Virus genome (UHGV): UHGV-0357976
Strand: one strand, 5' to 3'
DNA length: 19,533 nt
Source: a virus
This document shows, piece by piece, positions 1 through 18,999 of this stretch (position 1 is its first letter; each line of letters starts with the position of its first letter). The notes beneath the pieces are model-generated. The model had not been told where the DNA came from. It searched no databases and saw only the letters and a program-made list of their open reading frames with translations. The position numbers were made by a program, and so were the translations under genes.

Positions 1-1050
1 GCTGCTGATGTGAAAGCCGGTAACAGGCTGTTTTTGAATCTTCCGTCAGGCACAGCTCAGGCCAGAACCGTCCAGGCCGTTAACGGAAACACAGTCACTG
101 TCACCACACCCTACAGCGAAACGCCGGAGGCTGAATGTAACTGGGGTGTGGACTCTGACGATCTGTTTATAGCGCTTTTCCGTGTTACGGGAACGCGGGA
201 CAACAACGACGGTACTTTCGAGGTCACCGGGACGACTTACAACCCTGATATCTATTCCGCTGTTGATACCGGCGCAAGACTGGACGAGCGGCCAGTCAGT
301 GTCATTCCGCCAGGGGTTCAGGCTCCCCCAGGAAATATCGTCGTAGACAGTTACTCTACGGTTAACCAGAACATTGCGATTACCACCATGCGCGTTGCCT
401 GGGATGCTGTTCAGGGTGCAGTTGCGTACGAGGCGGAATGGCGGCGTGACAGCGGCAACTGGATTAGTGTGCCACGAACGTCTTCTCTCGGCTTTGAAGT
501 GCAGGGTATCTACTCTGGTCGCTATCTGGTCCGCGTCAGGGCGGTGAACGCCAGCGACGTTTCATCAGTGTGGGCGACATCACCAGAAGTAAATCTTACG
601 GGTAAAGTGGGCAATCCACCGAAGCCGGTGGGTTTCATCGCGTCTGAAAACGTGGTGTTCGGTATCGAGCTGAACTGGGGGTTCCCGGCCAATACGGACG
701 ATACACTGAAGACGGAAATTCAGTACAGCCTGACCGGTACTGAGGACGATGCGATGTTGCTGGCTGATGTGCCATACCCACAGCGTAAATATCAGCAGAT
801 GGGCCTTAAAGCGGGGCAGATTTTCTGGTACCGCGCGCAGCTGGTGGACCGCAGCGGCAACGAATCAGGGTACACAGAATGGGTGCGAGGACAGGCCAGC
901 ATCGATGTATCCGATATCACCGATGCAATCCTGGAGGACATGAAAGGCTCCGATACGTTCAAAGACATGATCGAGAACGCGGTGGACAGCAACGAAAAAA
1001 TTGCTGGCATGGCTAACGATATCAAACAGGCCAACGACGAACTGGAGCAG
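1..1050 (+). CDS. J-like host-specificity (central tail fibre) protein, 3' portion of a second copy; 5' end is outside the window; no native stop (frame runs on to 1434 through antisense of the minus-strand J)
   Basis: Frame 1 translation from position 1 (AADVKAGNRLFLNLPSG...) is colinear with the minus-strand J protein: roughly 60% identity over the first ~195 aa, then near-identical from LTGKVGNPPKPVGFIASEN to ANDIKQANDELEQ (ends at 1050). After 1050 the translation becomes Cys/Arg/His-rich and non-protein-like (antisense of J). Confidence 0.7.
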
Positions 1051-1704
1051 GTCCAGCTGAGCGCTGTTCCCTGCTACAGATGCAGACAACGTTTTACGCG
1101 CGGCTACCTGCGCCAGGTTGCCCTGAATAATTGCGATAGCAGAGTTCTTCACCCCGCCCGTCATGCCGTCCATAGACACAGAAATCTCGTCGATCTTCAC
1201 TTCGGCCTGAGCCAGCCCGTCAGCGTTCTCCAGGATGTCTTTCGCTTGCTGCTCCAGTTCGTCGTTGGCCTGTTTGATATCGTTAGCCATGCCAGCAATT
1301 TTTTCATTGCTGTCCACAGCGTTCTCGATCAGGTCTTTGAACGTATCGGAGCCTTTCATGTCCTCCAGGATCACATCTGTGATGTCGGAAACATCGATGC
1401 TGGCCTGTCCTCGCACCCATTCTGTGTACCCTGATTCGTTGCCGCTGCGGTCCACCAGCTGAGCGCGGTACCAGAAAATCTGCCCAGCCTTGAGGCCCAT
1501 CTGCTGATATTTGCGCTGCGGATAAGGCACATCGGCCAGCAGCATCGCATCGTCCTCGGTTCCGGTCAGGCTGTACTGAATTTCCGTCTTCAGCGTGTCG
1601 TCGGTATTCGCCGGGAATCCCCAATTTAGCTCGATACCGAATACCACGTTTTCAGAAGCGATGAAGCCAACCGGCTTCGGTGGGTTGCCCACTTTACCCG
1701 TCAG
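595..1704. repeat. Inverted repeat formed by two convergent J gene 3' segments: arms 595-1050 (+) and 1249-1704 (-), about 456 bp each, around a 198 bp asymmetric core (1051-1248)
   Basis: The reverse complement of 1001-1050 is identical to 1249-1298; the next 40 bp differ at 3 positions; by eye the arms are about 92% identical, mostly at third codon positions. Weaker homology continues outward (1-594 vs 1705 to about 2300). Confidence 0.85.
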
Positions 1705-3840
1705 CGTTTTCTCTTCTGAATAGCCCCATCCGGATGAGATTTCTGCGGCATTGATTGCGCGTACGCGCACCAGGTAGCGCCCGGCATAAATCCCCGGGAC
1801 GTCGAATGACGTGGTGGAGCTGCGCGGCACGTTAACCCAGTTCCCGTCGTTGCGGCGCCATTGCGCTTCATAGGCGATAGCGTTCTGCGCCTGGTCCCAG
1901 CTCACGCGCATCGTTTCGACGCTGATATTTTGCTGCACCACAGAAAACGAGCTGATCACGATGTTCGAAGGCGGCGACTGGTTGCCCGGCGGGATCACGC
2001 TCACCGGCCGCTGGTCAATGATGGCTCCGGTATCGATACGGGCATATTTATCCGGGTCGTGCCATGCGCCGGTAATCGAGAAAGTGCCATCATCGTTATC
2101 GGAAACGCTGACAACTCGATACTGCTGCGCGTAGAGCTCGTCAGATTCAACCACCCAGACAGCTTCGGCCTGTGGCGTCTCACTGTATGCCGTGGTGACT
2201 GTGACTGATTCCCCGTTCACGGCCTGAATGGTCCTGCTCTGCGACGCTCCGGAGGGAAGGTTGAGAATAAGGCGATCACCTGGTGCTGCATCAGCTACGC
2301 GGTCAAGTTTGATAACGCGACCGTTAACGGCGCTGATGCGGCCGCCCATAACCTTTCCGGAAAGCAGCTCGTCTGCCACGGCGATGATGTAGCCCGGCTG
2401 CGGAATGTTTCCGTCCAGCCCGACATCAAACGAAACAACGCGATCCTTGTTATTGGTGAGAATACCCCAGCGCCCCTTTCGGTTCGCCTCTGACTGCCTG
2501 GTGCAGCCGATGGCTGTCATTTCCAGCTGATTGAAGCCGTACCGCGCCACCAGCGCCTGCTCAAATACCGGCTCCATCGCGTCGGCATAAGCGTTACCCG
2601 GGTCTGACCATGAAACCAGCGCTGTGGTGTAGCGGCTTTTCGTGGTGCTGCTCGAATAGGTGAAGCGACCGCCAACAACGTTAGCGCGCGTATAGCTGTA
2701 ATCAACATCGCGCGGCATGTCAGCCAGGGCCACAATCTGATCCCCGCCCCAGTAGGTCATGCCACGGAAGATAGCGGCAAAATCACGCAGGACTGTGTAG
2801 GCGTCGTTCCGGTCCTGAATGTACACGTTGCAGGTATAACGTGGTTCTGTACCATTGCCCCCTTTGCCGTCTGGTACCATCTGATCACAATACTGAGCAA
2901 CCTGATAAAGCGTCCATTTATCAATATTCGCAGCGGTCAAACGGTGCCCAAGGCCGAACCGGTCAGAAACAACCAGGTCGTAAAAAATCCACGCAGGGTT
3001 ATCCGTCCATGCCCACTTAAACGCACCGGTCCATGTACCGCTATAAGTGCGGGTTTCAGGGTCGTAGGTATCTGGAACGCGGATAACGCGGCCGCGCGGT
3101 TCGCATGAAATTTGAGGAATAGAGCCGTTGAACTGGCTTGAGTCGAATTCGACGTAGAGCAGCGCGGTGTTCGGGTAGCGCAGTTTGGCGTCAATCACCT
3201 CGGTGAAGCTCTGCAGCATCATCGTGTCGCCGATCTTCGCGCTGTTGGCGTCAGAGGTAATCTTACGCAGACGTATTGTCCAGGTGCTGCCAGCCTGCGG
3301 TAAATCGATACGGTGGCTGCGCTCATAACCTGAGGTCGTTTTACCGGTCACGCTGGTATTGAGTACCGTCTGCCATGTGCCGCCGTCCGTCTGTAGGTCA
3401 ATCGCATAATTGACCGAGTAACCCACCAGATCGCCGTCGTCTTCCTGTTTGAAAAGCGAGGGCCATTTAAGACGCAGGCGAACTGCTGAAAGCTGCGTAT
3501 TGGTAAACGTGCGCGTCCAGGCTGTGGCACTTGATACCTCAGTTCCTACGCTGATCTCGTTTTCGGTACCGGGAATACCCTGAATATATTTTTGCGCCTG
3601 AGTTCCCGCGCGAAACTCCCACGTTACCCCGCTGAAGTTTTGGGAGCCGTCAGCATTCTCCAGCGCTGTTCCGTCCAGGTAGATATCTTTGCCGGTGAGC
3701 TGCCCTGCAAACTCACCTTCCCCAAGCGCAACGAGGATTTTTGCCTTCGCTACAGATTGCAGATCATCAGGCTGTTCGGTAGGAGTTCGGGAACTTGAGC
3801 TGCCGCCCTTGCGGCCTTTTAACACTTTATCTGTAGCCAT
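865..3840 (-). CDS. J: Tail tip / host specificity protein J (lambda gpJ family); the homology-supported part is 1051-3840, and the last ~62 codons (865-1050) are antisense of the plus-strand J copy
   Basis: 991 aa ORF with recalled gpJ-family blocks (EVIDAKLRYPNTALLYVEFDSSQF, YTCNVYIQDRNDAYTVLRDFAAIF), fibronectin-III-like repeats, and position directly after the I homologue. The C-terminus ends in sequence that is the mirror of the plus-strand copy. Confidence 0.9.
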   Translation of the reverse strand: MATDKVLKGRKGGSSSSRTPTEQPDDLQSVAKAKILVALGEGEFAGQLTGKDIYLDGTALENADGSQNFSGVTWEFRAGTQAQKYIQGIPGTENEISVGTEVSSATAWTRTFTNTQLSAVRLRLKWPSLFKQEDDGDLVGYSVNYAIDLQTDGGTWQTVLNTSVTGKTTSGYERSHRIDLPQAGSTWTIRLRKITSDANSAKIGDTMMLQSFTEVIDAKLRYPNTALLYVEFDSSQFNGSIPQISCEPRGRVIRVPDTYDPETRTYSGTWTGAFKWAWTDNPAWIFYDLVVSDRFGLGHRLTAANIDKWTLYQVAQYCDQMVPDGKGGNGTEPRYTCNVYIQDRNDAYTVLRDFAAIFRGMTYWGGDQIVALADMPRDVDYSYTRANVVGGRFTYSSSTTKSRYTTALVSWSDPGNAYADAMEPVFEQALVARYGFNQLEMTAIGCTRQSEANRKGRWGILTNNKDRVVSFDVGLDGNIPQPGYIIAVADELLSGKVMGGRISAVNGRVIKLDRVADAAPGDRLILNLPSGASQSRTIQAVNGESVTVTTAYSETPQAEAVWVVESDELYAQQYRVVSVSDNDDGTFSITGAWHDPDKYARIDTGAIIDQRPVSVIPPGNQSPPSNIVISSFSVVQQNISVETMRVSWDQAQNAIAYEAQWRRNDGNWVNVPRSSTTSFDVPGIYAGRYLVRVRAINAAEISSGWGYSEEKTLTGKVGNPPKPVGFIASENVVFGIELNWGFPANTDDTLKTEIQYSLTGTEDDAMLLADVPYPQRKYQQMGLKAGQIFWYRAQLVDRSGNESGYTEWVRGQASIDVSDITDVILEDMKGSDTFKDLIENAVDSNEKIAGMANDIKQANDELEQQAKDILENADGLAQAEVKIDEISVSMDGMTGGVKNSAIAIIQGNLAQVAARKTLSASVAGNSAQLDLLQFVVGLFDIVSHASNFFVAVHRVLDHVFERIGAFHVLQDCIGDIGYIDAGLSSHPFCVP

Positions 3841-3850
3841 ATTGCGCCCA

Positions 3851-3873
3851 TAAAAAAGCCACCCGAAGGTGGC
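3851..3873 (-). terminator. Intrinsic-terminator-like hairpin (GCCACC-CGAA-GGTGGC) followed by a U-tract on the minus strand, in the I-J intergenic space
   Basis: 6 bp GC-rich stem at 3858-3873 with a 4 nt loop; the A6 run at 3852-3857 on the plus strand is a U6 tract 3' of the hairpin on the minus strand. Confidence 0.5.
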
Positions 3874-3892
3874 CAGAAAAAAGGTTAGTTAT

Positions 3893-4501
3893 CTACTGCT
3901 GATCTTCGACATAAATTCCGGCAGAAATAATCGCTCCGCCGATTCGACGCTTACCATAAAGCAGAGGCACCGGGTAGCCTTGCGCTGCAGTGTTGGTTAC
4001 CCCGCCAAACGCATACGATGCACGGTTATCTGCGCTTTGTTTACTGGCTATGCCTGATGGCTGCGGTGAAAGAAGCTGAATAACCCCACCGAGGACCAAC
4101 GAGGCGCCAGTGGCAGCAGCAAACCCCGTCAATCCACCAGCAGCGAAAGCAGCGCCAATACCGCCAGGGCCAGTCAATACAGCAGCAGTAATAAGCACGG
4201 CCCCCAGGATTGTCTGCAAAAGACCAGCGCGTTTACTACCGATAATTACAGGCATAATCCTTACTACATCGCCTTCAGAGGGAAAACCCATCTCATCTGC
4301 GGCAATATTTCTTTTCCCTTTGAACACCGCGAAAGTTAATCCGCGACGTTTACTGCTGATCATGAAACTTTCGAAACCTGGCAATGTTTTACTTAAAGCA
4401 ATAGCAGCTTCACCAGTTCGCGCTATCAGTCGTTGATGGGTTCTACCGAATGTCTTTCCTAACACTCCGCCGAGCTGAATTGTTGTCATTACTTCTTTCA
4501 T
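3893..4501 (-). CDS. I: Tail tip assembly protein I (lambda gpI-like)
   Basis: 202 aa; Gly/Ala-rich hydrophobic central segment and C-terminal LVLGGVIQLLSP ... AAQGYPVPLLYGKRRIGG blocks resembling recalled lambda gpI; sits between K and J. Confidence 0.8.
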   Translation of the reverse strand: MKEVMTTIQLGGVLGKTFGRTHQRLIARTGEAAIALSKTLPGFESFMISSKRRGLTFAVFKGKRNIAADEMGFPSEGDVVRIMPVIIGSKRAGLLQTILGAVLITAAVLTGPGGIGAAFAAGGLTGFAAATGASLVLGGVIQLLSPQPSGIASKQSADNRASYAFGGVTNTAAQGYPVPLLYGKRRIGGAIISAGIYVEDQQ

Positions 4502-4510
4502 ATTCTCACC

Positions 4511-4533
4511 ATAAAAAAACCCGCCGAAGCGGG
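4511..4533 (-). terminator. Intrinsic terminator (CCCGC-CGAA-GCGGG plus U-tract) immediately downstream of the lipoprotein gene
   Basis: Hairpin at 4520-4533; the A-run at 4513-4519 on the plus strand is a U7 tract after the stem on the minus strand; 12-25 nt beyond the lipoprotein stop at 4545. Confidence 0.6.
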
Positions 4534-4544
4534 TTAAGTCTTGG

Positions 4545-4886
4545 TTAGATACAGCGTTCTATTACTTTAATCCGGCTGTTTATTCGATAAGCAAATAGCC
4601 CACCTTGATGACGGAATTCAATCTTGGTAATTCCGCCGTCCGATATTAAATCAACCATCTCAAGTTGAGATTGTGTAAATACAGTTTTACCACCGTCATA
4701 AGGCTGAATAAAAACGCTTCCATATTTTTGGCTTTCTTCTTGCCAGCCAGAGAGTATGCATTCAGCTACTGCGTCAATTTGTTTCTTCGATTGAAAAGTA
4801 TTTGACGCTGGTTCCTTCCGGAGATCCTGCATACTCGAACAACCAGCCATGATTATCAAAGAAAGTGTCAATAATGTTTTTTTCAT
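4545..4886 (-). CDS. Small secreted lipoprotein (moron) inserted between tail genes K and I; function unknown
   Basis: N-terminus MKKTLLTLSLIIMAGC has a signal peptide and lipobox (IMAG-C); AAGGGGA Shine-Dalgarno about 9 nt upstream of the ATG at 4886; visibly AT-rich compared with the flanking tail genes; followed by its own terminator. The ORF-track start at 4922 would overlap the K stop, so the internal Met is preferred. Confidence 0.7.
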   Translation of the reverse strand: MKKTLLTLSLIIMAGCSSMQDLRKEPASNTFQSKKQIDAVAECILSGWQEESQKYGSVFIQPYDGGKTVFTQSQLEMVDLISDGGITKIEFRHQGGLFAYRINSRIKVIERCI

Positions 4887-4915
4887 ATCCCTATCCCCTT
4901 TGGTTTTGCAAAAGG

Positions 4916-5626
4916 TTAGCACAGAGATTTGTAACGTAGAATCTTCATCGTCCTTTCCTGCCAGTAGCCACCATACGGCACGCGCTGGCTCAGATGTCCG
5001 TACAGGTGGTGCAGCAGCATGTTACCCTCCAGTAAAATCCCGGCATGATTCCACTTATCGGCCTGCACCTGCATGATGACGAGGTCCCCTTCCTGAGGCG
5101 GGCCGTCAAACTCCCTGAATCCGCATTCATACCAGCAATCCTGATAAAAATTGTCCGGATAGGCGTTTTCCCACCAGGGATAATCCACCCGGTAATCGTG
5201 GAGCTCGATACCATGCGTTTGCCGGAAATAGCTCATTACCAGCCCCCAGCAGTCGAAGTGTCCAAGCACAAACGGACGCTCCAGCAGTGGCAGTTCTCCG
5301 CGCGGCTGGATGGTGCGTAAATCCCCCTCCGGCCAGCTCACAATATGCCAGGGTAAAAGCGTTGCGTCGCATTGCGCTTTATCCAGTTCGCTCGGCTGCG
5401 TAGTGGCGTCAGGGTGACTGTGAACGATGGCGATCACCGTACCCCAGTCCTCAGCAGCTGCATAGTCTTCTGGCGACAGGTGAAAATGTTCTGTCGGCTC
5501 GGTAGCGAGGTTACTACATGGAAAATATTTCTCTACCCGGCTCTTTTGCGCCACCACGCCGCAACACTCACGAGGATATTCAGCTGCAGCATGCGCCATA
5601 ATCGCATCGATGGTTTTCTGACGCAT
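4916..5626 (-). CDS. K: Tail tip assembly protein K (lambda gpK-like; MPN/JAB plus NlpC/P60-type domains)
   Basis: 236 aa; MRQKTIDAIMAHAAAEYPRECCGVV and HSHPD motif; strong resemblance to recalled lambda K; position between L and I. Confidence 0.88.
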   Translation of the reverse strand: MRQKTIDAIMAHAAAEYPRECCGVVAQKSRVEKYFPCSNLATEPTEHFHLSPEDYAAAEDWGTVIAIVHSHPDATTQPSELDKAQCDATLLPWHIVSWPEGDLRTIQPRGELPLLERPFVLGHFDCWGLVMSYFRQTHGIELHDYRVDYPWWENAYPDNFYQDCWYECGFREFDGPPQEGDLVIMQVQADKWNHAGILLEGNMLLHHLYGHLSQRVPYGGYWQERTMKILRYKSLC

Positions 5627-5627
5627 A

Positions 5628-6383
5628 TCAACTCCTGATCAGCGACGTACCCGGGAACCCACCAAACGAGAGTTCGTTGTTTTCACCGAACCGAAGTTTG
5701 CAGGCCGTCAGCGTTCCGTTGCATTCATCCAGTGACGGATCGCTTACCTGGTTGTTGTTTTTGTCGAAATAGCGCGTACCTGCATAGTCGCAGCCGTCGC
5801 CGGTTCGGTACTTGTTCCGGATGCACCATGTGCACAGAGAATGAAGCTGGCGGGTAGGTATCATCAGCCCCTGCAGATCCATAGGGCTGGATAGTGTGAA
5901 CTCAACAACTTCATTGTTTTCACTGCTCTTTGCATCGATGTAGAAAACCTTCAGCTTCTCCTGGGTCGGATCGGCTGTCGGATTGCCTCCGGTGAAGTTT
6001 CTCGCATCGAGATACTTACCAAGGGTGTCATGTATCGTCACCTTCGCCTGCAGCATATCGTCGTAAGCCAGGCAAAGCGCGGTGATCGAACTGTCGAGGT
6101 TAGCAACCGAAAGTTTTGGCTGGGCACTACTTCCCGAGGTTGAAGCTTCGATCCCCTCAATCTGGCATGGCCACGCTTTATACTCCTCACCCTGCCACCA
6201 GATAGATTTTGCTGGCAGTTTATTTTCATCACCGCCAGCAGCGATAATTTCGGCTTCAGAGTGCGCAAGACTGTAGCTGTGAAATCGCAGCACATCACCT
6301 GTACCAAATGCCGTGCCATCCACTTCGAAAAGCCTGACCACATCGCCAGGTTCGAGCTTCTGAAAATCTGCGTTAAGACTCAT
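5628..6383 (-). CDS. L: Minor tail protein L (lambda gpL-like)
   Basis: 251 aa; C-terminal cysteine cluster (CTWC ... C ... C) typical of gpL; position between M and K. Confidence 0.85.
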   Translation of the reverse strand: MSLNADFQKLEPGDVVRLFEVDGTAFGTGDVLRFHSYSLAHSEAEIIAAGGDENKLPAKSIWWQGEEYKAWPCQIEGIEASTSGSSAQPKLSVANLDSSITALCLAYDDMLQAKVTIHDTLGKYLDARNFTGGNPTADPTQEKLKVFYIDAKSSENNEVVEFTLSSPMDLQGLMIPTRQLHSLCTWCIRNKYRTGDGCDYAGTRYFDKNNNQVSDPSLDECNGTLTACKLRFGENNELSFGGFPGTSLIRS

Positions 6384-6721
6384 GGTTTGTAGGCCTGTTC
6401 AAAAGTTGCAGAAAGATTAAATAACCCGGCACCAAGTGGCGTTGGTGTGTAGGTGTCGCAGCGGTAAAGCCCGAGAGGCTCAAGCGGCGGGCGCCACTGA
6501 AACGCCGTCACGCCCGCATGGCGATCGAGAAAGTCTTTAATCGCCCCGATATACGTTTCGGTACCGGTAAACTGGAGAGTCCATTTCTGCGAGCGGGGAT
6601 TAATCCCGTCGCCGGAAACCTGCTGATATCCGTCACCGAACTGCGCGGTGCGCCGTCGGAATGTCACTTCCTGCTCCGCGTTCGGGCGCGGACACCAGCT
6701 GAATGTTTCTATAGCCATCAC
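6380..6721 (-). CDS. M: Minor tail protein M (lambda gpM-like)
   Basis: 113 aa; RFGDGY motif region; 4 bp overlaps with the tape-measure stop and the L start; position directly after the tape measure gene. Confidence 0.8.
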   Translation of the reverse strand: MMAIETFSWCPRPNAEQEVTFRRRTAQFGDGYQQVSGDGINPRSQKWTLQFTGTETYIGAIKDFLDRHAGVTAFQWRPPLEPLGLYRCDTYTPTPLGAGLFNLSATFEQAYKP

Positions 6722-9138
6722 CGCCCTCCTTTTGCCAGATTCCAGACCGCGCCACCGGGTGAAAGGTCACGGCCTATCAACTCGCGGTATCGCCGATCAA
6801 CAAAACTACCTACCTCCCGCCCGAATTGCTCATATCCACCGCTAGCCTGAGTCTGGGTATTCCCATTGCCATCAATCTGAATACTGACCTGAGGAGCACT
6901 ACTACCACCCGGTGTTAAGCCTGAGATTCCCATAGCACGCACGCCCAGCGATCCGTCAGCGGCGCGGGTCAGTGGCATAATAGCCTCCGGCCCAGCCTCC
7001 CCCATCAATCCGGCCCCTTTGGCAAAGGCAAACAGTGTTGGAGAGCTGACGACAGAGTTACTGTACTGACTGAGATCGGCAGAAGAGTAAACGCCGCCTT
7101 TGGCGTTGAATTGCAGGCTCGCCCCGTAGGACTGAATCGCAGTACCGCTGCTGGCGGAAGACGATGCGGCACCACCGAACAATGAGCCTATCGAGCTGGC
7201 TGCATTGGCGATCATCATGTTAACCATCACCTGTTCGATGATTTTCAGAACACTGACACCCCAGTCTTTCCAGCTCGCTTTATTGCCGTTGAGCATGTCG
7301 ACGATATTGCTGCTGATACCGGAAAGCGCGCTTTTCATAGCGTCCGCCGCCAGCGTCGCATAGTTAGTTGAATCATCTACCCAGTCAGCGAGACCGTCTC
7401 TGGCGCCAGTCACCCAGTCAGACTGCAGCGCATCAATTTGACTGTAATAATCCTCCTGGATGCCCAGCCTCTCAGCTTGTGCATCCTTTAATGCCTGGGT
7501 TTCGCGGTCATAAACTGTCTGGCTGATATCTCCTGACTGATACTGCTTTTGCAGATCGCGCTGCTGATCGAGATAACTGCGCTCTATACTCAGCCTTTCC
7601 CTCAGCCTTTCACGCTGCTTGTCACCGAGTCCGGCCCCCTGAATATCCACGCCCAAATCTGCACGTGCATTCTCGTTCTGCTCCTGCAGATTTGCCACGA
7701 ACGCCGCTACCTTCGCGTTTTCTTCATTAGCTTTTTTGACGGCATTAAGGCGATCAACTTCCTGAGCCAGAGACGCAAGTCGTTTCTTCTGGGTTTCGTT
7801 AAGCCCCTGCAACTTGCCGTCAGCTATATCGAACTGCAGTTTTTGCTGCTCGGTCACAACAGCAGTTTTTTTGCCGGTGGTATCGATCAGCTCAATCTGA
7901 CGCATGTAACTGCGCTCAGCGCTTTTAAACGCTGAATCCAGTTTCTGACCAGAGGTATTTTTTTGCGGCTTACCGTTTGTTTCCCCGGCGCCAAGGGTAT
8001 AGTTTGTTTTGACTGGCTCGGGCAGTTTTATTTTCGGTAGAGTAGATTGGGAGTTTCTCAAAAAGGCCAGTCGCCTCTGGAGCTCAGCCCTTTCGGCCTC
8101 CTTACCGGATACGTCCATACCTATTCTGTTGAAACTCGCCAGTATGCCTTTATCATCGAGATCTGCATTCAGGTTCTTGATGCGCCGTTCAATTTCTGGA
8201 ATGGAGGCATTCAGGCCGACCGAACTCCCACCTTTGTACTGGTCTATCAGCTTTCCGGCCTCGGCTCCTACCCTTACCAGCCAGGTGGCAAGGTCCACTA
8301 CCCCACCAACCAGATCAGTCAGACCCTGAATAACAGCCGGGTCTTTAAATACATCCCCCATATCTCCAATAGACTTCTGGAGCCCACTCAAATCTACGCT
8401 GGCGAGCCCTGCAGCAAGTTCAATTTTGACGCCGTTGACCTGCGTCTCCATATCCTCAAACAGGGCGTTGACTCTGACCAGCTTTTCAATATCTGCGTCA
8501 TCGGGCGCCACACCAAACTTCTTCGCGGCATCCATATACTGACGCAGCTTTTCACTGCCATTGTCCAGGAGCGGCAGCATCTTTGACAGGTCATTACCCA
8601 GACTCTCCAGGATGGTAGTCTTCTCGGCGTTGGACTTAACTTTCTCCAGTGCGTCGCTGATAGCCAGGAGTTGCTTGTCGGGAGATTCTCCGGCCAGTTT
8701 CTTAGCCGACAAACCCAGAGCGTCCAGCGCACCGACCGCCTCACCAGATTTATTAAGAACGGCATCACCGATTTTGTCTCCGACATCTTTAAAGATATCG
8801 GCCATCTGATCGCCGGAAACACCTGCTTTTTCTGCAGCATATTGCCAGGCTAACAGGGACTGCGTGGACATGTTAAGTGACTTTGCCCAGCGGTCTGATT
8901 CGGTAATCTGACGTGAAGTGGTTTTGAGCAGGTTATACCCCGCCACTCCGGCTCCGATGGCTGCAGCCCCGACTGCTGTTGCGAATCCGGTCATGGCAGC
9001 TGCAGCGGCAGCGGCATCCTCCTTTACCTGCTTACGCCATTTTTGTGAAGCTCGCTCAGCCTGCGAGAGGCCTGAGACAAAACCGCCCACTTTGGCAATC
9101 AGGTCGATCGTCAGCGTGCCCAGTGATTTGGAAGCCAT
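6718..9138 (-). CDS. Tail tape measure protein
   Basis: 806 aa, long alpha-helical and low-complexity protein with a Gly/Ala/Ser-rich C-terminal part; located between the G/G-T chaperones and M. Confidence 0.9.
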   Translation of the reverse strand: MASKSLGTLTIDLIAKVGGFVSGLSQAERASQKWRKQVKEDAAAAAAAMTGFATAVGAAAIGAGVAGYNLLKTTSRQITESDRWAKSLNMSTQSLLAWQYAAEKAGVSGDQMADIFKDVGDKIGDAVLNKSGEAVGALDALGLSAKKLAGESPDKQLLAISDALEKVKSNAEKTTILESLGNDLSKMLPLLDNGSEKLRQYMDAAKKFGVAPDDADIEKLVRVNALFEDMETQVNGVKIELAAGLASVDLSGLQKSIGDMGDVFKDPAVIQGLTDLVGGVVDLATWLVRVGAEAGKLIDQYKGGSSVGLNASIPEIERRIKNLNADLDDKGILASFNRIGMDVSGKEAERAELQRRLAFLRNSQSTLPKIKLPEPVKTNYTLGAGETNGKPQKNTSGQKLDSAFKSAERSYMRQIELIDTTGKKTAVVTEQQKLQFDIADGKLQGLNETQKKRLASLAQEVDRLNAVKKANEENAKVAAFVANLQEQNENARADLGVDIQGAGLGDKQRERLRERLSIERSYLDQQRDLQKQYQSGDISQTVYDRETQALKDAQAERLGIQEDYYSQIDALQSDWVTGARDGLADWVDDSTNYATLAADAMKSALSGISSNIVDMLNGNKASWKDWGVSVLKIIEQVMVNMMIANAASSIGSLFGGAASSSASSGTAIQSYGASLQFNAKGGVYSSADLSQYSNSVVSSPTLFAFAKGAGLMGEAGPEAIMPLTRAADGSLGVRAMGISGLTPGGSSAPQVSIQIDGNGNTQTQASGGYEQFGREVGSFVDRRYRELIGRDLSPGGAVWNLAKGGR

Positions 9139-9157
9139 AAACTCTCCGTTGGCGGCA

Positions 9158-9819
9158 TTATGTCCAGCTGGCTCTGGCTTCCTCTAACGAGATTGGTCCA
9201 TCAGCAGCTTTGACTTTGGTAAAGTGAAGTGTGAAATCGGTCGGGTTGAATGGTGGGCGCTTGGGGTCTCTGTTAACGTTGGCTATCATGCTGCTCACCA
9301 GCCCGGCACCCCACTCAACCCGCAACATAGGGTTCAGACTCCCGTATCGTTCCCGGTACTTTGCCCAGAGTTGGGACTCTTTGAATGAGAGGACTTCCCG
9401 CGCTTCGGCGATTGTTCTGCCTCCGATTCCGTTGAGGACGAGCTCGCACCAGAATTCGTCTTCGGCGCTGAGCTCGAAGTCTTTCCCAGATCGTTAACTT
9501 CCTGAATGGCCAGAAGCAGTGCTACCGTCAGGCCGCCATCCAGTGCACCACGTTCAGGATCTGCCTCACCAGTAATGTCAGCCGGGGTGAAGATGGGTTT
9601 ACCATGTTCATCGCAGATGGATGCGGCGATACGCCCTGCCACACCATCGACCTTACCACCAAAAGCCAGCACATCGGACGTTGCTGTGTGATAACCCATC
9701 GGGCGAACATACACGGTCGCGGTGATTTTTTTATCGCCTTGCGTCCAGGTGATTTCTTTCTCAACCGGGCGACCGGTAAACGCGCCGGACTCCTTGAGTG
9801 CATCAAGTGTTAATTTCAT
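9158..9819 (-). CDS. T: Tail assembly chaperone G-T fusion made by programmed -1 frameshift (G frame 9819-9481, T frame 9481-9158)
   Basis: Slippery heptamer G GGA AAG at 9481-9487 in the G frame; the -1 frame downstream encodes a protein-like sequence (DFELSAEDEFWCELVLNGIGGRTIAEAREVLSFKESQLWAKYRERYG...) ending at a TAA at 9158-9160, just upstream of the tape measure start. Confidence 0.75.
9334..9819 (-). CDS. G: Tail assembly chaperone G (zero-frame product)
   Basis: 161 aa ORF (MKLTLDALKESGAFTGRPVEKEITW...) between the major tail and tape measure genes; contains the slippery site at codons 111-113; the zero-frame tail after the site is Ser/Gly-rich low complexity. Confidence 0.8.
   Translation of the reverse strand: MKLTLDALKESGAFTGRPVEKEITWTQGDKKITATVYVRPMGYHTATSDVLAFGGKVDGVAGRIAASICDEHGKPIFTPADITGEADPERGALDGGLTVALLLAIQEVNDLGKTSSSAPKTNSGASSSSTESEAEQSPKRGKSSHSKSPNSGQSTGNDTGV
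9481..9487 (-). other. Programmed -1 ribosomal frameshift slippery heptamer GGGAAAG (G to G-T)
   Basis: Exact heptamer in X XXY YYZ register within the G frame (CTG GGA AAG); same motif as the lambda G-T frameshift. Confidence 0.75.
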
Positions 9820-9838
9820 TATTAATCCTGATTAATAA

Positions 9839-9852
9839 GGGCGTTGCCGCCC
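9839..9852 (-). terminator. GC-rich hairpin (GGGCG-TTGC-CGCCC) directly after the major tail protein stop; possible attenuator
   Basis: 5 bp GC stem with 4 nt loop; on the minus strand it is followed by the U/A-rich UUAUUAAUC; lies between the major tail stop (9858) and the G start (9819). Confidence 0.4.
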
Positions 9853-9857
9853 TGATT

Positions 9858-10358
9858 TTATGGGGTCACGACTTTTGGCACCCATACAGCAGAGCCGGAG
9901 CGCTGGATAGATGCAGAAGTAGAAACAACCGTGTTTGCTGCAAAATCAAACGGGAAGTCGGACACATAGCCTTTGAATACGAACCATGTGCGGCTATCAG
10001 GTAGCACCAGGCCATCGACTGCACCGGATGCACCATTTTCAGCCGCAGTTGGCGATGCGGTTCCGTCTGACCATCCAATCGCGAAGGTCAGGTCCTGATC
10101 CTCTTCGTCGTCCGAAATGGACAGGTTGTAGAGCATGATGTGGCTGGTATTTTTAGGATCAGCGTTAAGCGTCAGTGATGCTGTGCCAGGCGTTCGAAGA
10201 CCACGCTTATAGCTGCGATCAAAGCGTTCAGAAAGACAGGTGTCTTCAATCTGGTCAGCCGGATTGCTGCCGGGTGAAAATGCAGTGATACATTCAACTT
10301 CGCTCACCTTGCCTTTTACGAGCACAAAGAGCTGCGTACCTTGCGTCAATACAGACAT
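9858..10358 (-). CDS. Major tail (tube) protein
   Basis: 166 aa ORF immediately upstream of the G/G-T chaperone genes, the conserved siphovirus position; GGAG Shine-Dalgarno 6 nt upstream of the ATG. Confidence 0.75.
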
Positions 10359-10374
10359 TGTTATCTCCGGTCAT

Positions 10375-10397
10375 AAAAAAACCGGCTCAAGGCCGGT
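10375..10397 (-). terminator. Intrinsic-terminator-like hairpin (ACCGGC-TCAAG-GCCGGT plus U7) upstream of the major tail gene
   Basis: Stem at 10381-10397; the A7 run at 10375-10381 on the plus strand is a U-tract after the stem on the minus strand; between the stop at 10413 and the start at 10358. Confidence 0.5.
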
Positions 10398-10412
10398 GGT
10401 TGAATAATACGT

Positions 10413-10778
10413 TTATCGAGTGACTATCCAGTCAACATCGAATGAGTAGCGATAGCGCTTTGTTTCTGGGTCTCTTTCCTGTCCGCCCCAGCGCGTGATA
10501 TGCGCGTGCGGCTCAATGGCATCCCGCAGCGCAGTAGCCACGGCAATCACTTCATCCACGGTGTCGGCATATGCATCCACCTGCAGCGTGAAAAAGTCTG
10601 CGTCAGGGCGCTGGGCAATGTAGTTCTCTGGAGAACCGGTGATGTTCTGCCAGACCACATAGGGATAGACCACGTTGTCGTCCTGAATTCCGAAAGGATA
10701 AATTCTTACCGGATTGCTTCCGAGTAAGTCAGTGACTTCAGGACTCGACGCGCAAACAGAAAAAATAGGGGCAATCAT
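10413..10778 (-). CDS. Tail completion / neck protein (DUF3168-like)
   Basis: 121 aa; pattern RIYPFG ... YPYVVWQNITGSPENY ... LQVDAYADT ... resembles recalled DUF3168 phage proteins; position between the HK97 gp10-like gene and the major tail gene. Confidence 0.7.
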   Translation of the reverse strand: MIAPIFSVCASSPEVTDLLGSNPVRIYPFGIQDDNVVYPYVVWQNITGSPENYIAQRPDADFFTLQVDAYADTVDEVIAVATALRDAIEPHAHITRWGGQERDPETKRYRYSFDVDWIVTR

Positions 10779-11323
10779 GCAGTGGTTCCTTTCTTCATGG
10801 CCAGCCTGATAGCGCGATCAATAGCCTTTCCCATTTCCGTAGAAAAAACATTAATCACGTCATTATCTACGCCGTTCATTGCAGGTCGGAGGATAGGCCG
10901 CGCTGATGTGTGCTCAGTACCAAACTCAAGAAAACGCCAGTACCAGGTATCTCCTCCTGGATTGCCTTTATCTCCTGAGGTTTTGTATGTTTTACCCGCT
11001 CTGCCTTTTCTGACGTTTGCCTTTGTATTTGCATACTGCCTGGCACCGCCCATTACCCCGACACGGAATGCCAGATCACCTGTCCTGCGGAATTGCTTGC
11101 TGCTGAAGCTGGCGACGATATTTTTGTGGATTGCTTCTTTAGTCAGAGGATCATCAACTCGTGACGCGTTGCTTCTGGCCCGATCCCTTATAATGTTTGC
11201 CGCCTTACGCAATGCAAACCGACCGGCTTTATTACGGGTGACTTCTGATACGGCCTCCATTTTCCCAAGAAGTGATTCAAGCCCGGTAAGACTTACCTCA
11301 ACACTATCAGCCATCATTAACAC
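10775..11323 (-). CDS. HK97 gp10-family head-tail joining protein
   Basis: 182 aa; motifs RKGRAG ... YWRFLEFGT ... RPILRPA typical of the HK97 gp10 family; conserved position. Confidence 0.75.
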   Translation of the reverse strand: MLMMADSVEVSLTGLESLLGKMEAVSEVTRNKAGRFALRKAANIIRDRARSNASRVDDPLTKEAIHKNIVASFSSKQFRRTGDLAFRVGVMGGARQYANTKANVRKGRAGKTYKTSGDKGNPGGDTWYWRFLEFGTEHTSARPILRPAMNGVDNDVINVFSTEMGKAIDRAIRLAMKKGTTA

Positions 11324-11639
11324 CCTCAGAACAGGGAAGCGTCAGGTATTCACGTCCGCTTTTTGGATCGGGCAGAACACCATGGATGTTATACACAGCA
11401 CCACGAAACAAGATGCGATGTTTTCTGGTAACTCCGGCACGGTAGCGAATAACAATACGGGTGGTTATTTCACCCTGAGAAGCCTGCGCAGCAATAAATT
11501 CACGCGCTGACAATGGTGAAACTTCGGCCCGGACAGTCGCAACATCTCGCCAGGTATTAATTACGGCTCCCGTTGTCGGGTTCTGCACTTTTACTGGCTC
11601 CTGCAGAGTAATCCTGTGGCGCAATTTCCCGGCCTGCAT
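11307..11639 (-). CDS. Phage head closure / head-tail adaptor protein (Phage_H_T_join-like)
   Basis: 110 aa; GKLRHRITLQ ... W ... AEVSPLSAREF ... TTRIVIRYR pattern matches the recalled family consensus. Confidence 0.75.
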   Translation of the reverse strand: MQAGKLRHRITLQEPVKVQNPTTGAVINTWRDVATVRAEVSPLSAREFIAAQASQGEITTRIVIRYRAGVTRKHRILFRGAVYNIHGVLPDPKSGREYLTLPCSEGVNDG

Positions 11640-11640
11640 G

Positions 11641-11838
11641 TTACCCCCTGGGTTTACCGCTCAGATAGGTTTGTTGCTCTGCAGTTTCATCTAGTTCACC
11701 AGCCAGCGACTGGATAATGACATCGCAAAGCGCCATATTTGATTCAGCCAGACGGCTTATCGCTTCCGTCTGCTCCCTCTGCGCTGTGATTTGTTCCCGT
11801 ATCACTGCTATCAGTTCGTTTACCAGTTGCTCGTTCAT
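11641..11838 (-). CDS. Hypothetical small acidic helical protein (65 aa)
   Basis: ATGA start/stop overlap with the upstream 78 aa ORF (translational coupling); its stop lies 1 nt before the head-closure ATG; no recognisable family. Confidence 0.5.
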   Translation of the reverse strand: MNEQLVNELIAVIREQITAQREQTEAISRLAESNMALCDVIIQSLAGELDETAEQQTYLSGKPRG

Positions 11839-12071
11839 AAGCTATTTTTGCCCACTTTTTTATCCACTCGCTCCGTTGCGCGCATCCAGACGCGAATCGT
11901 TGCCTGCGCCGTTTCCGCGCCGCCTGAAAGCTGCTCTCTGCCGCTGATCCTCTTTACCTCAGCCGGGACCGGGTTGCCACCTGTCCACGATTCAACCGGC
12001 TGACCAGATGGATCGCGCGAAGTCGTGAAGGTGAGAATTTTTACCCGGTGCCTGAATCGTCCTGGTTCCAT
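11835..12071 (-). CDS. Short head-closure-like paralogue (78 aa), homologous to the N-terminal two-thirds of the Phage_H_T_join family
   Basis: GRFRHRVKIL ... PSGQPVESW ... PAEVKRISGREQ ... ATIRVWMR parallels the full-length head closure protein at 11307-11639; ORF ends at about 70% of family length. Confidence 0.55.
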   Translation of the reverse strand: MEPGRFRHRVKILTFTTSRDPSGQPVESWTGGNPVPAEVKRISGREQLSGGAETAQATIRVWMRATERVDKKVGKNSL

Positions 12072-12397
12072 CAGGAGCCCTCCTCTGATTCGGCTTTACC
12101 GCGCCAGTTGCGATGAATGAACATCATGCGTTCGGCGGCTGCATTCTCATAAAGCTGCACTTCGCTTTGTGCCGTCCGGTGTTCAAACATGTCAGCAAAG
12201 ACAAGCAGAACGGCGCCCTTAACGGCGGCAGGAATATCAGCCGCAACCTTCCATGCTGGTTCATCGCACCAGCGCATGCAGTAGTCAAAAGCGGCCTGGG
12301 CGTACAGCGTGATCAGCTCGTCCCTGTCGTCTTCCTCAAACTCAATCTGCTGCTTAAACAGACTGAGGGAAATTACATCCAGAACATCTATCGCCAT
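12071..12397 (-). CDS. gp6-like head-tail connector protein
   Basis: 108 aa; ITLYAQAAFDYCMRWC motif region typical of gp6-like connector proteins; located directly after the major capsid gene. Confidence 0.75.
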   Translation of the reverse strand: MAIDVLDVISLSLFKQQIEFEEDDRDELITLYAQAAFDYCMRWCDEPAWKVAADIPAAVKGAVLLVFADMFEHRTAQSEVQLYENAAAERMMFIHRNWRGKAESEEGS

Positions 12398-12400
12398 ACG

Positions 12401-12424
12401 TTAAAAGGGCGGGTTTACCCGCCC
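12401..12424 (-). terminator. GC-rich hairpin (GGGCGGG-TTTA-CCCGCCC) plus short U-tract directly after the major capsid gene; probable attenuator
   Basis: 7 bp stem at 12407-12424; on the minus strand it is followed by UUUUAA (12401-12406); between the capsid stop (12431) and the connector start (12397). Confidence 0.5.
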
Positions 12425-12430
12425 CCTCCA

Positions 12431-13588
12431 TCATGAGCCAGAAGAGAAGGTGCCCTTGATGATTGCTGTCGGGCGATAATGCGCCAGCGCCAGACGCTCT
12501 TCGCACAGGATGGTCAGCATGTTTTTCACGAAGTTATCGCGGTCTTCACGGCTAACTTCCACGGTGGCATCCATGCGATCCCAGACCTGTGAGGCCATAT
12601 CGAAACCGCCTACGGTAAAGGTGCCGGCGGCCTGCGCCTTAGTCGGAACCACTGGCAAGCCCCACATGATGTTACTGGTGAATGCCTGAGGACCACCGAA
12701 GATATAGCGGCCTTCATTGTCTTTCAGCAACGCGATGTTGTGCCAGTCGCGCGGGTTCAGGACGATACCGGAAGCGCTGAACTCAGACTCGGTCACCTGA
12801 TAAATAGCGTGAGCGATAATGTCAGCGCGGGTGTCGCCGGTGGCATTCAGCGAGGTGTCATAGGCGGTTGCCACTTTGTTCAGCCCTTCCAGGTTATCCC
12901 CGGTACCGTCGCCGTTCAGCAGCTGGCCCTCTTCCTTCAGTGCCAGGCCGTACATGAGGCGGTTGTTAATGTAGGACTGAAGCATTGGCGCATCATCCAT
13001 CACCTGACGTGATGCCTGCACCCAGTGCGCGATGGTCTTCACGTTCGCGGTTTGTTTGCTGAAGGTGATATCCGATTCTGGCTTCAGTGCTTTCTCTGCC
13101 ACCACGTCGGCGTTATTGGTAAACACCTCTTCACGCACATATTCCAGAGCGTTACTGGAAGTGCGGCCCTGAGCCAGCAGATCACGAATGGTAAGACGGC
13201 GCAGGCCTGGCATGATGATGCCTGGGATCTGCATAGGCTGGATCAGTGAGCCAGCCGAATCAGCGTCACTGCCTAGTGACTTGTTAAACGTTTTAGCGCC
13301 AAAGGTGCCCTGTTTACCGTCCCATGACTTAATAAGCTCTTCAGCAGCCCGTTCAGAGAAGGATTTCTTCTCACCAGGATTCTCAGCGCCGGATGCCAGT
13401 TTCTGTTCCAGATCGAAGAGGCGAGTGCCGGATTTGGTCAGCTCTTCCTGTACTTTCATCAGGTCGGACTGCAACTGTTTGGAAACCTGGCCTGTGCTTT
13501 CGATTTCTGCTTTCTGCGCATCGAAAAGCTGGGTCATTTTCTGCTGGGATTCTTCGATAGCTTTTTGAATGAGAGCGAGTTCAGACAT
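12431..13588 (-). CDS. Major capsid protein, HK97 family (with N-terminal delta/scaffold domain)
   Basis: 385 aa; N-terminal ~100 aa is coiled-coil-like and charged, followed by a capsid-like body; directly downstream of the prohead protease, as in HK97-type head modules. Confidence 0.85.
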   Translation of the reverse strand: MSELALIQKAIEESQQKMTQLFDAQKAEIESTGQVSKQLQSDLMKVQEELTKSGTRLFDLEQKLASGAENPGEKKSFSERAAEELIKSWDGKQGTFGAKTFNKSLGSDADSAGSLIQPMQIPGIIMPGLRRLTIRDLLAQGRTSSNALEYVREEVFTNNADVVAEKALKPESDITFSKQTANVKTIAHWVQASRQVMDDAPMLQSYINNRLMYGLALKEEGQLLNGDGTGDNLEGLNKVATAYDTSLNATGDTRADIIAHAIYQVTESEFSASGIVLNPRDWHNIALLKDNEGRYIFGGPQAFTSNIMWGLPVVPTKAQAAGTFTVGGFDMASQVWDRMDATVEVSREDRDNFVKNMLTILCEERLALAHYRPTAIIKGTFSSGS

Positions 13589-13590
13589 AA

Positions 13591-14280
13591 TTATTTACCT
13601 AAGTTAGAAGGGAAAGATTTGATGCTCTGAAGCAGAGCGTTTATTTGTGCTTCGTTTCCGTCGCCCTCGGACTCGCTCCGAATCGCTGACTTAAACCGGG
13701 CAATTAGCCCAACTGCCTGTGATTTGGTGAGGCCGACTGAATCCCTCAGCCAGTTCTCCACATCACGAATCGTTTCAATACCATCGACACTTTTCATGGC
13801 TGCGATGCCAGCCTGTTCGTTGGCGGGGAAAGTGCAGACGCTGATTTCGCGCAGAGCCTGGATATTCTTAAAAATGCGGCCTGTTGGAATGATGGTGTAA
13901 TCGTCTTTCGAAACGGAAAAGCCAACCGACATACCTTCAACCGTACCGTGCTGCATTGCCGCTTTCAGGTCAGCGGCGCCGCTGTGTCCTGGGGTAAGTT
14001 GACCGCGCACATACAGGCCTTTTTCGTCCTCAGCCAGGCTGTCCCATTTGCCAACCGGCAGTTCCCACGTCCTGTGGTTAAAAAACATCGCCACTTTTCG
14101 GGTCTGGTTCGCCAGCGCGTTTTTAAACGCCCCGGGCAGAATGATGTCGCCATCGGAATCGGTGTTATTAAAAACAGAGGCGTAGCCTTCAAAAATCCCC
14201 TGTTTACCGTCACCGGTGAATTTGATTTCTGTCTCGTCGAAGGACAGCGTTTTTACGATTTCAGGCATTACGGCCCCCAT
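13591..14280 (-). CDS. Prohead protease (HK97 family); true start may be the internal Met at 14268
   Basis: 229 aa between the portal and major capsid genes; size and position fit HK97-type prohead maturation protease. Confidence 0.8.
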   Translation of the reverse strand: MGAVMPEIVKTLSFDETEIKFTGDGKQGIFEGYASVFNNTDSDGDIILPGAFKNALANQTRKVAMFFNHRTWELPVGKWDSLAEDEKGLYVRGQLTPGHSGAADLKAAMQHGTVEGMSVGFSVSKDDYTIIPTGRIFKNIQALREISVCTFPANEQAGIAAMKSVDGIETIRDVENWLRDSVGLTKSQAVGLIARFKSAIRSESEGDGNEAQINALLQSIKSFPSNLGK

Positions 14281-14285
14281 AAAAA

Positions 14286-15563
14286 TTAAGCCCCGTTATT
14301 ACGGGGCTCTTTGTTGGTTCCTAAATCGGTGATCGGCACGTATTGCGACTGGCGCATTGCCACATCGCCACCCGGCAATGGCGGGAGGTTGTCCGTTCGT
14401 CGCATCTCGTTGATGGTGCGTAGCCCTGACTCTCCCATTGCCTTCATAAAGGCAGCGCGGGATGCCGAATCTCCCCTCAGCAGGCCGTCGAGGTTGTGCT
14501 CAGCATGAATGCGGCCAACATCCTTAGCAGGAATAAGCCACCGCTGAATGCTGTTTTCCCACCTGGAGATATATGGCTGCAGGGTGTACTGCAGGAAGCC
14601 GAGATTCTGCTGCTCGATGCCCGATCCCCAGCTCGTTGATTTCTCGACGTCGCCGACAAGGTGAGGCGGTACGCCAAAGAATCGCGCCAGTTCACTTACC
14701 TGAAATTTTCGGGACGCCATCATTTCGGCATCCTGCGGAGTTACGCCAATTGCCGATGTAGAAAAACCCGCTTCCAGAATCCAGAGGCGTTTTTTTACCG
14801 GGCCGCCGGCGATCTCTTTGAAGTTCTCTTCGACCTGGGAGCGCTGCTGTTCAGTTAGCACTTTTTCGCCAGTTGAGAGGATTTGCGGAGACTTGGCGCC
14901 GTTGGCAAAGAAATCTCGCTGCTGGTCCTCCATCGCAACTGCCACACCTGCCGATTTACAGGCAAAAGCAATGGGTGACAGGCCTACAAGCCCGGTGAAT
15001 CCGAAGCCTTTAAGGTGAAAAATCTCTTTCTGCGAAAAGTCGGCGTATTCGCTGTCGCGTTGATAGCGATAAACCACTTTTTTTCCGACGAGTTTCACAT
15101 CCATATTGGCAGACTGAAGCGGGAGTAGGCTGATCACGTCACCTGCGCTGTTGCGGTCCACAAGTGCATATGCGTTACCGTAGAAACAGAGCTGCATCGT
15201 CATGGCCTCCCTGAATTCTTGGGCGGTCATGTACTGATTCGGTGAGTAGCGCAGCAGTCGCGCCAGTGGATTGCTCAAATCCACTTTTTTACGGTTGTCA
15301 TTCTGGTCTGTTTCGAAGACATCAAGCGGTAAGCATGCCGTGAGCGTTGAAATCAGGCTCACGCAGCGCCACACAGTCGAAATTTGCAGTATCCGTTCAT
15401 CGTTAATGGATGAATCGCCCAGGTATCCGTGGGCCGAAACAGGCCCCGTCTGTGAGCCCTGATTTGGGGTGACTAAACGCCCGCCGACAAACCAGGACTT
15501 CAGCCTTGCCCACCAGCCGTTATTGGTTCGCAGGTCAATCGTGTATTTAGGTTCTTCCATCAC
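14286..15563 (-). CDS. Portal protein (HK97 family)
   Basis: 425 aa; ATGA overlap with the terminase large subunit stop; canonical position between the terminase and protease genes. Confidence 0.85.
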   Translation of the reverse strand: MMEEPKYTIDLRTNNGWWARLKSWFVGGRLVTPNQGSQTGPVSAHGYLGDSSINDERILQISTVWRCVSLISTLTACLPLDVFETDQNDNRKKVDLSNPLARLLRYSPNQYMTAQEFREAMTMQLCFYGNAYALVDRNSAGDVISLLPLQSANMDVKLVGKKVVYRYQRDSEYADFSQKEIFHLKGFGFTGLVGLSPIAFACKSAGVAVAMEDQQRDFFANGAKSPQILSTGEKVLTEQQRSQVEENFKEIAGGPVKKRLWILEAGFSTSAIGVTPQDAEMMASRKFQVSELARFFGVPPHLVGDVEKSTSWGSGIEQQNLGFLQYTLQPYISRWENSIQRWLIPAKDVGRIHAEHNLDGLLRGDSASRAAFMKAMGESGLRTINEMRRTDNLPPLPGGDVAMRQSQYVPITDLGTNKEPRNNGA

Positions 15564-17074: not shown

Positions 17075-17080
17075 AGTCTT

Positions 17081-17566
17081 TTATCCGTGCTTGGGAAAGG
17101 CGATCAGGTTATCGTCCTGGTCCTGATGCTCGTTTTTGGTATTCCGTGCATCACGATCGTTCTGATTACGTTTCTTCTGGTCGCGACTTTCGCCGTTGGT
17201 TGCGTGGGAGTGGATCTGGAGGTCGCGGCGCTGAGCCAGGATAGTTCGTTGTAGCTCAACAATTTGCTTGCGGAGGTCTTTTATAAGGCCTTCGTCTCGC
17301 TCCTCCCCGCGTATGCGCTCTTCTTTGCGTAAATCCTTGCGTAAAACGGTGATATAGAGCTGATTATTAGCAAGTTCTACGGCGGCTAGAAGGTCGGCAG
17401 GCGTCCAGCTGTCCAGAGCTTTCGATCTGATATTGTCATGCCAGAATGGTTCGGCTTTTTTCTCCAAACCTGCATGGGACGGCGGATCGATGGTGTCCAC
17501 AGCTGCATTTTTCATGGCCTGAACCGCTGCCGCCGAACTGTCGGAACGGATTCGTTTATCTGCCAT
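17081..17566 (-). CDS. Terminase small subunit (P27-family-like)
   Basis: 161 aa, highly charged C-terminal half; immediately upstream of the large subunit; AAGGTG Shine-Dalgarno upstream of the start. Confidence 0.7.
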   Translation of the reverse strand: MADKRIRSDSSAAAVQAMKNAAVDTIDPPSHAGLEKKAEPFWHDNIRSKALDSWTPADLLAAVELANNQLYITVLRKDLRKEERIRGEERDEGLIKDLRKQIVELQRTILAQRRDLQIHSHATNGESRDQKKRNQNDRDARNTKNEHQDQDDNLIAFPKHG

Positions 17567-18963: not shown

Positions 18964-18999
18964 GTATTGCTCCTGTTTTTTTTGGTTTTCATCGCCCGA

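Follow-up and report, generated by a model that had tools for sequence, protein, structure and literature searches.

The UHGV virus genome UHGV-0357976 carries, in the 19,533-nucleotide stretch analyzed here (the window), two phage J genes that meet tail to tail. The minus-strand gene (J_A) is an incomplete, pseudogene-like member of the TipJ / lambda gpJ-type family (HK97 gp24 subgroup), and it finishes in 61 residues that are a meaningless antisense reading of a second J gene (J_B) rather than a new kind of protein end. J_B, which lies on the plus strand, is as truncated as J_A. The original prediction, namely, that J lacks its native C-terminal end and finishes in antisense-encoded sequence, was borne out: between 219 and 430 residues are missing relative to full-length J proteins, together with the PF09327 domain. 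We regard the feature as a new instance of ordinary prophage damage, that is, a truncated gene at a rearrangement breakpoint, or possibly as an assembly chimera.

Two J genes of different phages

The native part of J_A covers the hub domains, the FNIII domains, and the first stretch of the alpha-helical shaft, and its matches point to a central tail fiber / tip attachment protein J of the HK97/HK022 type (Table 1). Its DNA was 94 to 98% identical to that of mEpX1, mEpX2, HK97, mEp390, and HK140, and all DNA matches of known J genes to J_A ended at window positions 1050 to 1123, with the J genes of the HK97 group matching as far as positions 1050 to 1052. In the protein alignment, residues 1 to 962 of mEpX1 J were 94% identical to J_A (907 of 968 aligned positions), and the J proteins of HK140, mEp390, mEpX1, and HK97 were colinear with J_A residues 1 to 930 (91 to 93% identity overall). 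The colinearity of J_A with the HK97-group J proteins extends through the FNIII domains to ...ANDELE. Pfam detected PF24801 (FNIII-A_GpJ; residues 92 to 218, E = 1.3e-50) and PF13550 (Phage-tail_3; residues 344 to 505, E = 1.3e-13). Both domains occur in the same way in HK97 gp24, HK022 gp24, and lambda gpJ, and the upstream genes of these phages (tape measure, M, L, K, and I) are also those of the window. Residue 864 of J_A closes the block ...ANDIKQANDELEQ, and the next 66 residues, encoded from window position 1248 down to 1051, are still J-like (QAKDILENADG...AGNSAQLD), which is exactly the number of protein-like residues that had been predicted to follow the conserved block.

In these J proteins, the helical shaft is modular. 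J proteins of the ARL09/232 type carry a tandem duplication of a module of roughly 96 aa (SVSMDG...ATQI; alignment columns 880 to 1100). A 32-aa insert past ELE[LQ] is present in the J proteins of mEpX1 and HK97 and absent from those of HK140 and mEp390 and from J_A.

J_B enters across the left edge of the window and is therefore visible only as a fragment. It showed 97% nucleotide identity to the J gene of the Escherichia coli ARL09/232 prophage (L003 4453-8541, 1362 aa), in a register in which window position 1 corresponds to nucleotide 1549 of that gene and window position 1050 corresponds to nucleotide 2598, in codon 866 (ELEQ). Over window positions 1 to 492, the identity between J_B and J_A was only 60 to 72%, so the two genes are alleles of two phages and not products of the duplication of a single gene. 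The frame of J_B, like that of J_A, runs past the junction: it crosses the spacer and the J_A arm of the inverted repeat described below, and ends at the antisense of J_A's own TCA serine codon (...GNESGYTEW).

Table 1. Positions of the two J genes and of the elements around their junction (window coordinates)
Feature	Position	Strand	Description
J_B fragment, codons 517-866	1..1050	plus	ARL09/232 / Enterobacter-type allele; cut after ...ANDELEQ
Left arm of inverted repeat	493..1050	plus	J_B sense; repeat finder
ORF, J_A	865..3840	minus	991 aa; HK97/HK022-type J
J_A non-native tail	865..1050	minus	61 codons + stop (865-867); codon-for-codon antisense of plus-strand J copy
Tail-to-tail junction of J_A and J_B	1049..1052 (1050/1051)		Comparison with native continuations
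Inverted-repeat spacer	1051..1248	minus	Last 66 native J_A codons, helical shaft; QAKDILENADG...AGNSAQLD
J_B mirror read-through	1051..1434	plus	127 antisense codons + stop (1432-1434); ORF 10..1434
J_A native part, residues 1-930	1051..3840	minus	Ends ...AGNSAQLD; DNA, protein, and Pfam matches
Right arm of inverted repeat	1249..1806	minus	J_A sense; repeat finder

The inverted repeat and the junction

A repeat finder identified an inverted repeat with arms of 558 nt that are 87% complementary and lie 198 nt apart. The differences between the arms fall chiefly at third codon positions, and the repeat, far beyond what chance would produce, consists of two homologous J coding segments. The 198-nt spacer shared 96% identity with the sequence that follows ELEQ in native ARL09/232 J, and its last 129 nt matched HK97 J at 100%.

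The junction was placed between positions 1050 and 1051 by reference to how the two native genes continue. Past ...GAGCAG, native ARL09/232 J proceeds with CAAGCGAAAGAC (QAKD...); in the window, ...GAGCAG is followed by GTCCAGCTGAGC, the antisense of ...SAQLD. Conversely, the native HK97 J continues past ...CAGCTGGAC with CGTCTAGAC (RLD...), in place of which the window has the antisense of ELEQ. The join is blunt: no bases were inserted, and microhomology amounts to 1 nt at most. It sits on a codon boundary in J_A and J_B alike, so each J frame runs through the other gene in antisense, exactly in register; that both breaks fall on codon boundaries is a mild coincidence, of about 1 in 9. A scan of the junction for promoters and terminators returned nothing, and no insertion sequence (IS) element, att sequence, or site-specific signal was seen there. 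A minus-strand transcript across the junction is predicted to form a hairpin of roughly 558 bp (MFE, -1009 kcal/mol).

The junction is a singleton in all of the collections searched, which counts against its being present in a genome. A 38-mer spanning it had no occurrence in the genome_contigs, viral_contigs, or metagenome_contigs collections, no record among the E. coli complete genomes or phage records spans it, and the exact chimeric protein of 991 aa is not on record.

The missing distal part of J_A

When J_A was aligned to full-length gpJ homologues, five relatives were found to extend well past the residue equivalent to D930, by 219 residues in mEp390 J (1149 aa), 221 in HK140 J (1151 aa), 221 in mEpX1 J (1183 aa), 334 in HK97 J (1296 aa), and 430 in ARL09/232 J (1362 aa). 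All five go on past ...AGNSA[QNS][LI]D with R[IL]D.... The distal 219 to 430 residues of the HK97-group relatives include PF09327 (Phage_Tail_Tip), and J_A has 61 unrelated, antisense-encoded residues in their place. Pfam detected PF09327 in the J proteins of mEpX1, mEp390, HK97, and ARL09/232 (E values of 1e-45 to 1e-50), and precomputed annotation places it in HK140 J; in J_A, the Pfam search did not detect it. Among the matches listed, all 10 of the contigs encoding an identical tape-measure protein have a J of 1151 to 1296 aa with PF09327, followed by the usual downstream genes. In the window, the genes that lie 3' of J in the relatives (two small ORFs, cor, the side tail fiber gene, and the att end) are missing, and the inverted J_B stands there instead.

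Structures have been solved for full-length relatives of J (25vf, 9l9p, and 23gd) and for lambda gpJ (8iyk). Lambda gpJ is arranged in the order hub, FNIII-1/2, alpha-helical shaft, central straight fiber, and C-terminal receptor-binding domain, and its C terminus sets host specificity (PMC11101478). The PF09327 region of mEpX1 J matched, in the PDB, the part of lambda gpJ that the depositors named the central straight fiber. Judged by this architecture, J_A is cut within the alpha-helical shaft, with the remainder of the shaft, the central straight fiber, and the C-terminal receptor-binding domain gone.

To place J_A in the length distribution of its family, the 930 native residues were used as the query of an exhaustive HMMER search, from which the best 150 cluster representatives, a diverse set, were retained. 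Their median length was 1650 aa, and 143 of the 150 have at least 100 residues past the D930 equivalent. Five of the seven short exceptions were examined: two end within the last FNIII domain or directly past it, a third breaks off inside a repeat, a fourth has a seemingly frameshifted tail, and the fifth is without the FNIII region and has a long fiber end. None of these five resembles J_A. Full-length J homologues with a natural end near this position had been named as evidence against the truncation; no close homologue ends there. One J relative of 817 aa (P0059) appears to have the hub joined directly to the distal fiber, with no FNIII domain, a shortening opposite to that of J_A.

The antisense-encoded tail

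The passage of J_A into the antisense of the other copy, with a stop at position 865, can be followed directly in the translation, as predicted. The distal part had been given as 62 residues; its antisense nature stands, and the length is corrected to 61 residues, which with the stop make up the 62 codons from position 1050 to 865. The stop codon (865 to 867), read directly, is the antisense of a conserved serine codon (TCA) in ...GNESGYTEW of the plus copy.

Substitutions among homologues follow the plus-strand J frame, and the frame of the tail bears no sign of selection. In the comparison of HK97 with window positions 865 to 1050, the numbers of differences at the first, second, and third codon positions of the J frame were 2, 3, and 26, respectively. 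Of the 28 changed codons, 21 were synonymous in the plus-strand J frame and 27 were nonsynonymous in the frame of the tail. Codons that yield an in-register antisense stop (TTA, CTA, or TCA) occur once per 52 to 68 codons in these J genes, and antisense runs of up to 164 to 283 codons are open in them; an antisense run of 62 codons is therefore what chance would produce.

A query with the last 127 residues against 5.8 billion protein clusters returned no match with more than 57% coverage and none spanning both C-terminal halves. The tail matches that were examined (P0001, P0002, and P0005) are "hypothetical proteins" of 97 to 218 aa without a Pfam domain, and are antisense shadow ORFs of J. 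AlphaFold, run on the last 192 residues as a single sequence without an alignment, gave a mean pLDDT of 46.8, with values of 27 to 44 in the tail. The possibility raised at the outset, that the distal residues form a conserved folded domain, did not hold: by the cluster search and the substitution pattern, they are not a conserved domain. The three shadow ORFs stand in public databases as "uncharacterised proteins," mostly from Enterobacter hormaechei.

Origin of the junction

We favor, as the probable origin, a nonhomologous tail-to-tail join, made in the cell, of J genes from two lambdoid prophages. J_A, belonging to an HK97/HK022-like (Hendrixvirinae) module, would have been cut past residue 930, within the shaft, and J_B, a different allele in the opposite orientation, would have been cut past its residue 866; each frame would then run antisense through the partner gene up to the first antisense stop. 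Such a join could have been produced by a deletion between two convergently oriented prophages or by an inversion whose two breakpoints lay in two co-oriented J genes, one in each. Because neither gene has decayed (no frameshifts were found in J_A or J_B) and nucleotides 1 to 600 of J_B are 100% identical to the ARL09/232 allele, the join would be recent. The absence of decay fits a very recent event and an artifact equally well.

With respect to chromosomal location, close relatives of prophage A (the prophage carrying J_A) use the HK022 att site next to torT, a site known for HK022 itself (PMC6814406), and the ARL09/232-type prophage is inserted at dusA. A large inversion between a torT-adjacent prophage and a dusA prophage was considered; it would require that both prophages occupy these sites in the source strain, and it was dropped as speculation.

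Deletions and other defects are frequent among lambdoid prophages, as in the Sp prophages of E. coli O157 Sakai (PMC2669165). The locus resembles the defective lambdoid prophages of E. coli in that a late gene has been hit by a deletion or rearrangement and the prophage end past J has been lost. It differs from them in showing one lesion only, the blunt tail-to-tail join to another J gene; the remaining 18 kb of the window contained no visible IS element, frameshift, or further sign of decay.

The main rival, which we judge less likely, is that the junction is an artifact, in which a chimeric molecule or read joined two intact J genes of the same sample in inverted orientation and the genome itself holds no truncated J. 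It could have arisen by ligation or amplification, or as a chimeric long read at the end of a contig. The uniqueness of the junction among all collections searched would be expected of such an artifact, as would the otherwise pristine state of both genes; the join, blunt and with at most 1 nt of microhomology, is like those of ligation or template-switch chimeras, and the odd size of the window, which ends inside J_B, could reflect the end of a contig. However, reasoning on the assembly graph, a short-read assembler would require reads that span the junction, and a consensus assembler would normally go with the majority of reads through an intact J. An assembly graph path that goes wrong at shared repeats preserves orientation and requires about k nucleotides of overlap, as in the joins of a de Bruijn graph; the junction has no such overlap, so an error of this kind is unlikely. 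Chimeras formed by folding back, moreover, yield identical arms, whereas the arms here are 87% identical and come from different alleles. This last point bears equally on a fold-back (snap-back or template-switch) inverted duplication of one J, turning 198 nt upstream, with arms that diverged later, which we consider very improbable. It would explain why the junction is inverted, why the arms are homologous, and why the 198-nt spacer is the native continuation of one arm, and known fold-back chimeras and duplications likewise combine an inverted junction and a short spacer with almost no microhomology. Yet past the 558 nt of the arms the copies drop to 60 to 72% identity, and the left copy is a natural ARL09/232 allele (100% over 600 nt) while the right copy is of the mEpX1/HK97 type, so that the arms do not go back to a common template.

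It is scarcely credible that J_A is a naturally short J whose novel C-terminal 61 (or, in J_B, 127) residues are functional, for example, as a receptor-binding or capping module. The ORF is open and in frame, and a few distant family members have lengths of about 990 to 1010 aa, but the tail corresponds exactly, in antisense, to the conserved FNIII/shaft coding sequence of another J, and variation among homologues that is synonymous in the J frame is almost entirely nonsynonymous in that of the tail. Its length is that of a chance run, no protein spans both halves, the single-sequence AlphaFold prediction (weak evidence) contains no confident fold, and the short relatives examined (five of seven) resemble fragments, a frameshifted end, or another architecture. 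Equally little credence can be given to a programmed switch of the Mu Gin/G or P1 Cin/C kind, with inversion of the 198-nt segment serving one J gene or the other. A tail fiber gene segment between inverted repeats does recall Mu G/Gin, P1 C/Cin, and e14 P/Pin, in which inverted repeats surround a piece of a host range gene; a recombinase-family protein is found near the side tail fiber genes of the ARL09/232-type prophage; and the mosaic of the arms at first resembled a reciprocal exchange. Unlike those systems, however, the window contains no invertase, short crossover sites, or alternative C-terminal exons. Its other ORFs are structural and lysis genes of HK97-like phages, and no recombinase ORF is among them; specifically, no serine invertase gene was found near the segment within the window, which extends 1 kb to the left of the junction. 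The arms are coding homologies of 558 nt rather than short crossover sites, and the spacer encodes only 66 shaft residues, which are also present in ARL09/232-type J past ELEQ, and no alternative receptor-binding end; neither orientation of it would complete a J. The apparent reciprocity vanished as well, mEpX1 and ARL09/232 being identical at the informative sites.

The case for a reciprocal exchange between the arms at the same coordinate weakened on the following grounds. At the informative sites in nucleotides 2178 to 2541, mEpX1 does not differ from ARL09/232, and the right arm is accordingly just mEpX1-like; the only ARL09/232-like part on the J_A side is the spacer. On the J_B side, the sequence leaves its 100% identity to ARL09/232 at about nucleotide 630 for another allele ("X"; positions 630 to 1050, plus strand). 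No close natural carrier of this allele was found: E. coli complete genomes reached at most about 93% identity, Enterobacter phage LAU1 matched at 82 to 98% in patches, five IMG/VR contigs with a common 35-mer reached at most 88%, and a second scan of genome_contigs returned nothing. An elaboration of the in-cell join, which we regard as rather unlikely, would be that a real join disabled two co-resident prophages at once and that recombination between the arms (558 nt) then flipped the 198-nt center. The ARL09/232-like spacer would originally have belonged to J_B and the "X" allele at positions 630 to 1050 to J_A, and the mosaic would be accounted for with one fewer novel allele.

Consequences for the prophage and for annotation

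If the J_A protein is made, it might still assemble as a hub and would probably support neither a distal fiber nor receptor binding. By analogy with the architecture of lambda gpJ (PMC11101478), the prophage should therefore give nonadsorbing tails. Defective prophages can be rescued by recombination with co-resident prophages (PMC2669165 and PMC3945230), and unless it were rescued by recombination or complementation, this prophage would, on its own, be without an adsorption-competent tail tip.

If the junction is real, the prophage and its partner should both be annotated as defective, J is a pseudogene whose product of 991 aa should not be named a host specificity protein, and the locus records that two prophages underwent a deletion or inversion in the chromosome. 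If the junction is an artifact, a misjoin in the source assembly has been flagged. A lesson in either case is that long codon-for-codon antisense frames of J are open by chance and are annotated as proteins in public databases. Beyond annotation, the importance of the feature is slight.

The remainder of the prophage

Positions 1052 to 19437 of the window form an HK97/HK022-like (Hendrixvirinae) module for morphogenesis and lysis, which is intact except at J. This region was 98 to 99% identical to HK140, mEpX2, HK022, and several E. coli prophages, and ORF lengths match those of the relatives for the Rz-like spanin, terminase, portal, protease, capsid, tail tube, tape measure, M, L, K, and I. 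At positions 19438 to 19533, just upstream of the Rz-like spanin gene (19000 to 19449), homology to the window ends in all close relatives, which marks a mosaic boundary in the lysis module.

Two further observations concern genes within the module. A partial head-closure (Phage_HCP) ORF of 78 aa (11835 to 12071, minus strand) lies two genes upstream of the full gene of 110 aa (11307 to 11639, minus strand); its equivalent carries the annotation of a pseudogene fragment in E. coli CUPF12 and is present in only some close relatives. Between K and I, an ORF of 125 aa (4545 to 4922, minus strand; phrog_914) occupies a slot that is filled in relatives by a 113-aa version, a YebO-like ORF of 74 aa, or an ORF of 173 aa, and that is apparently a variable moron position.
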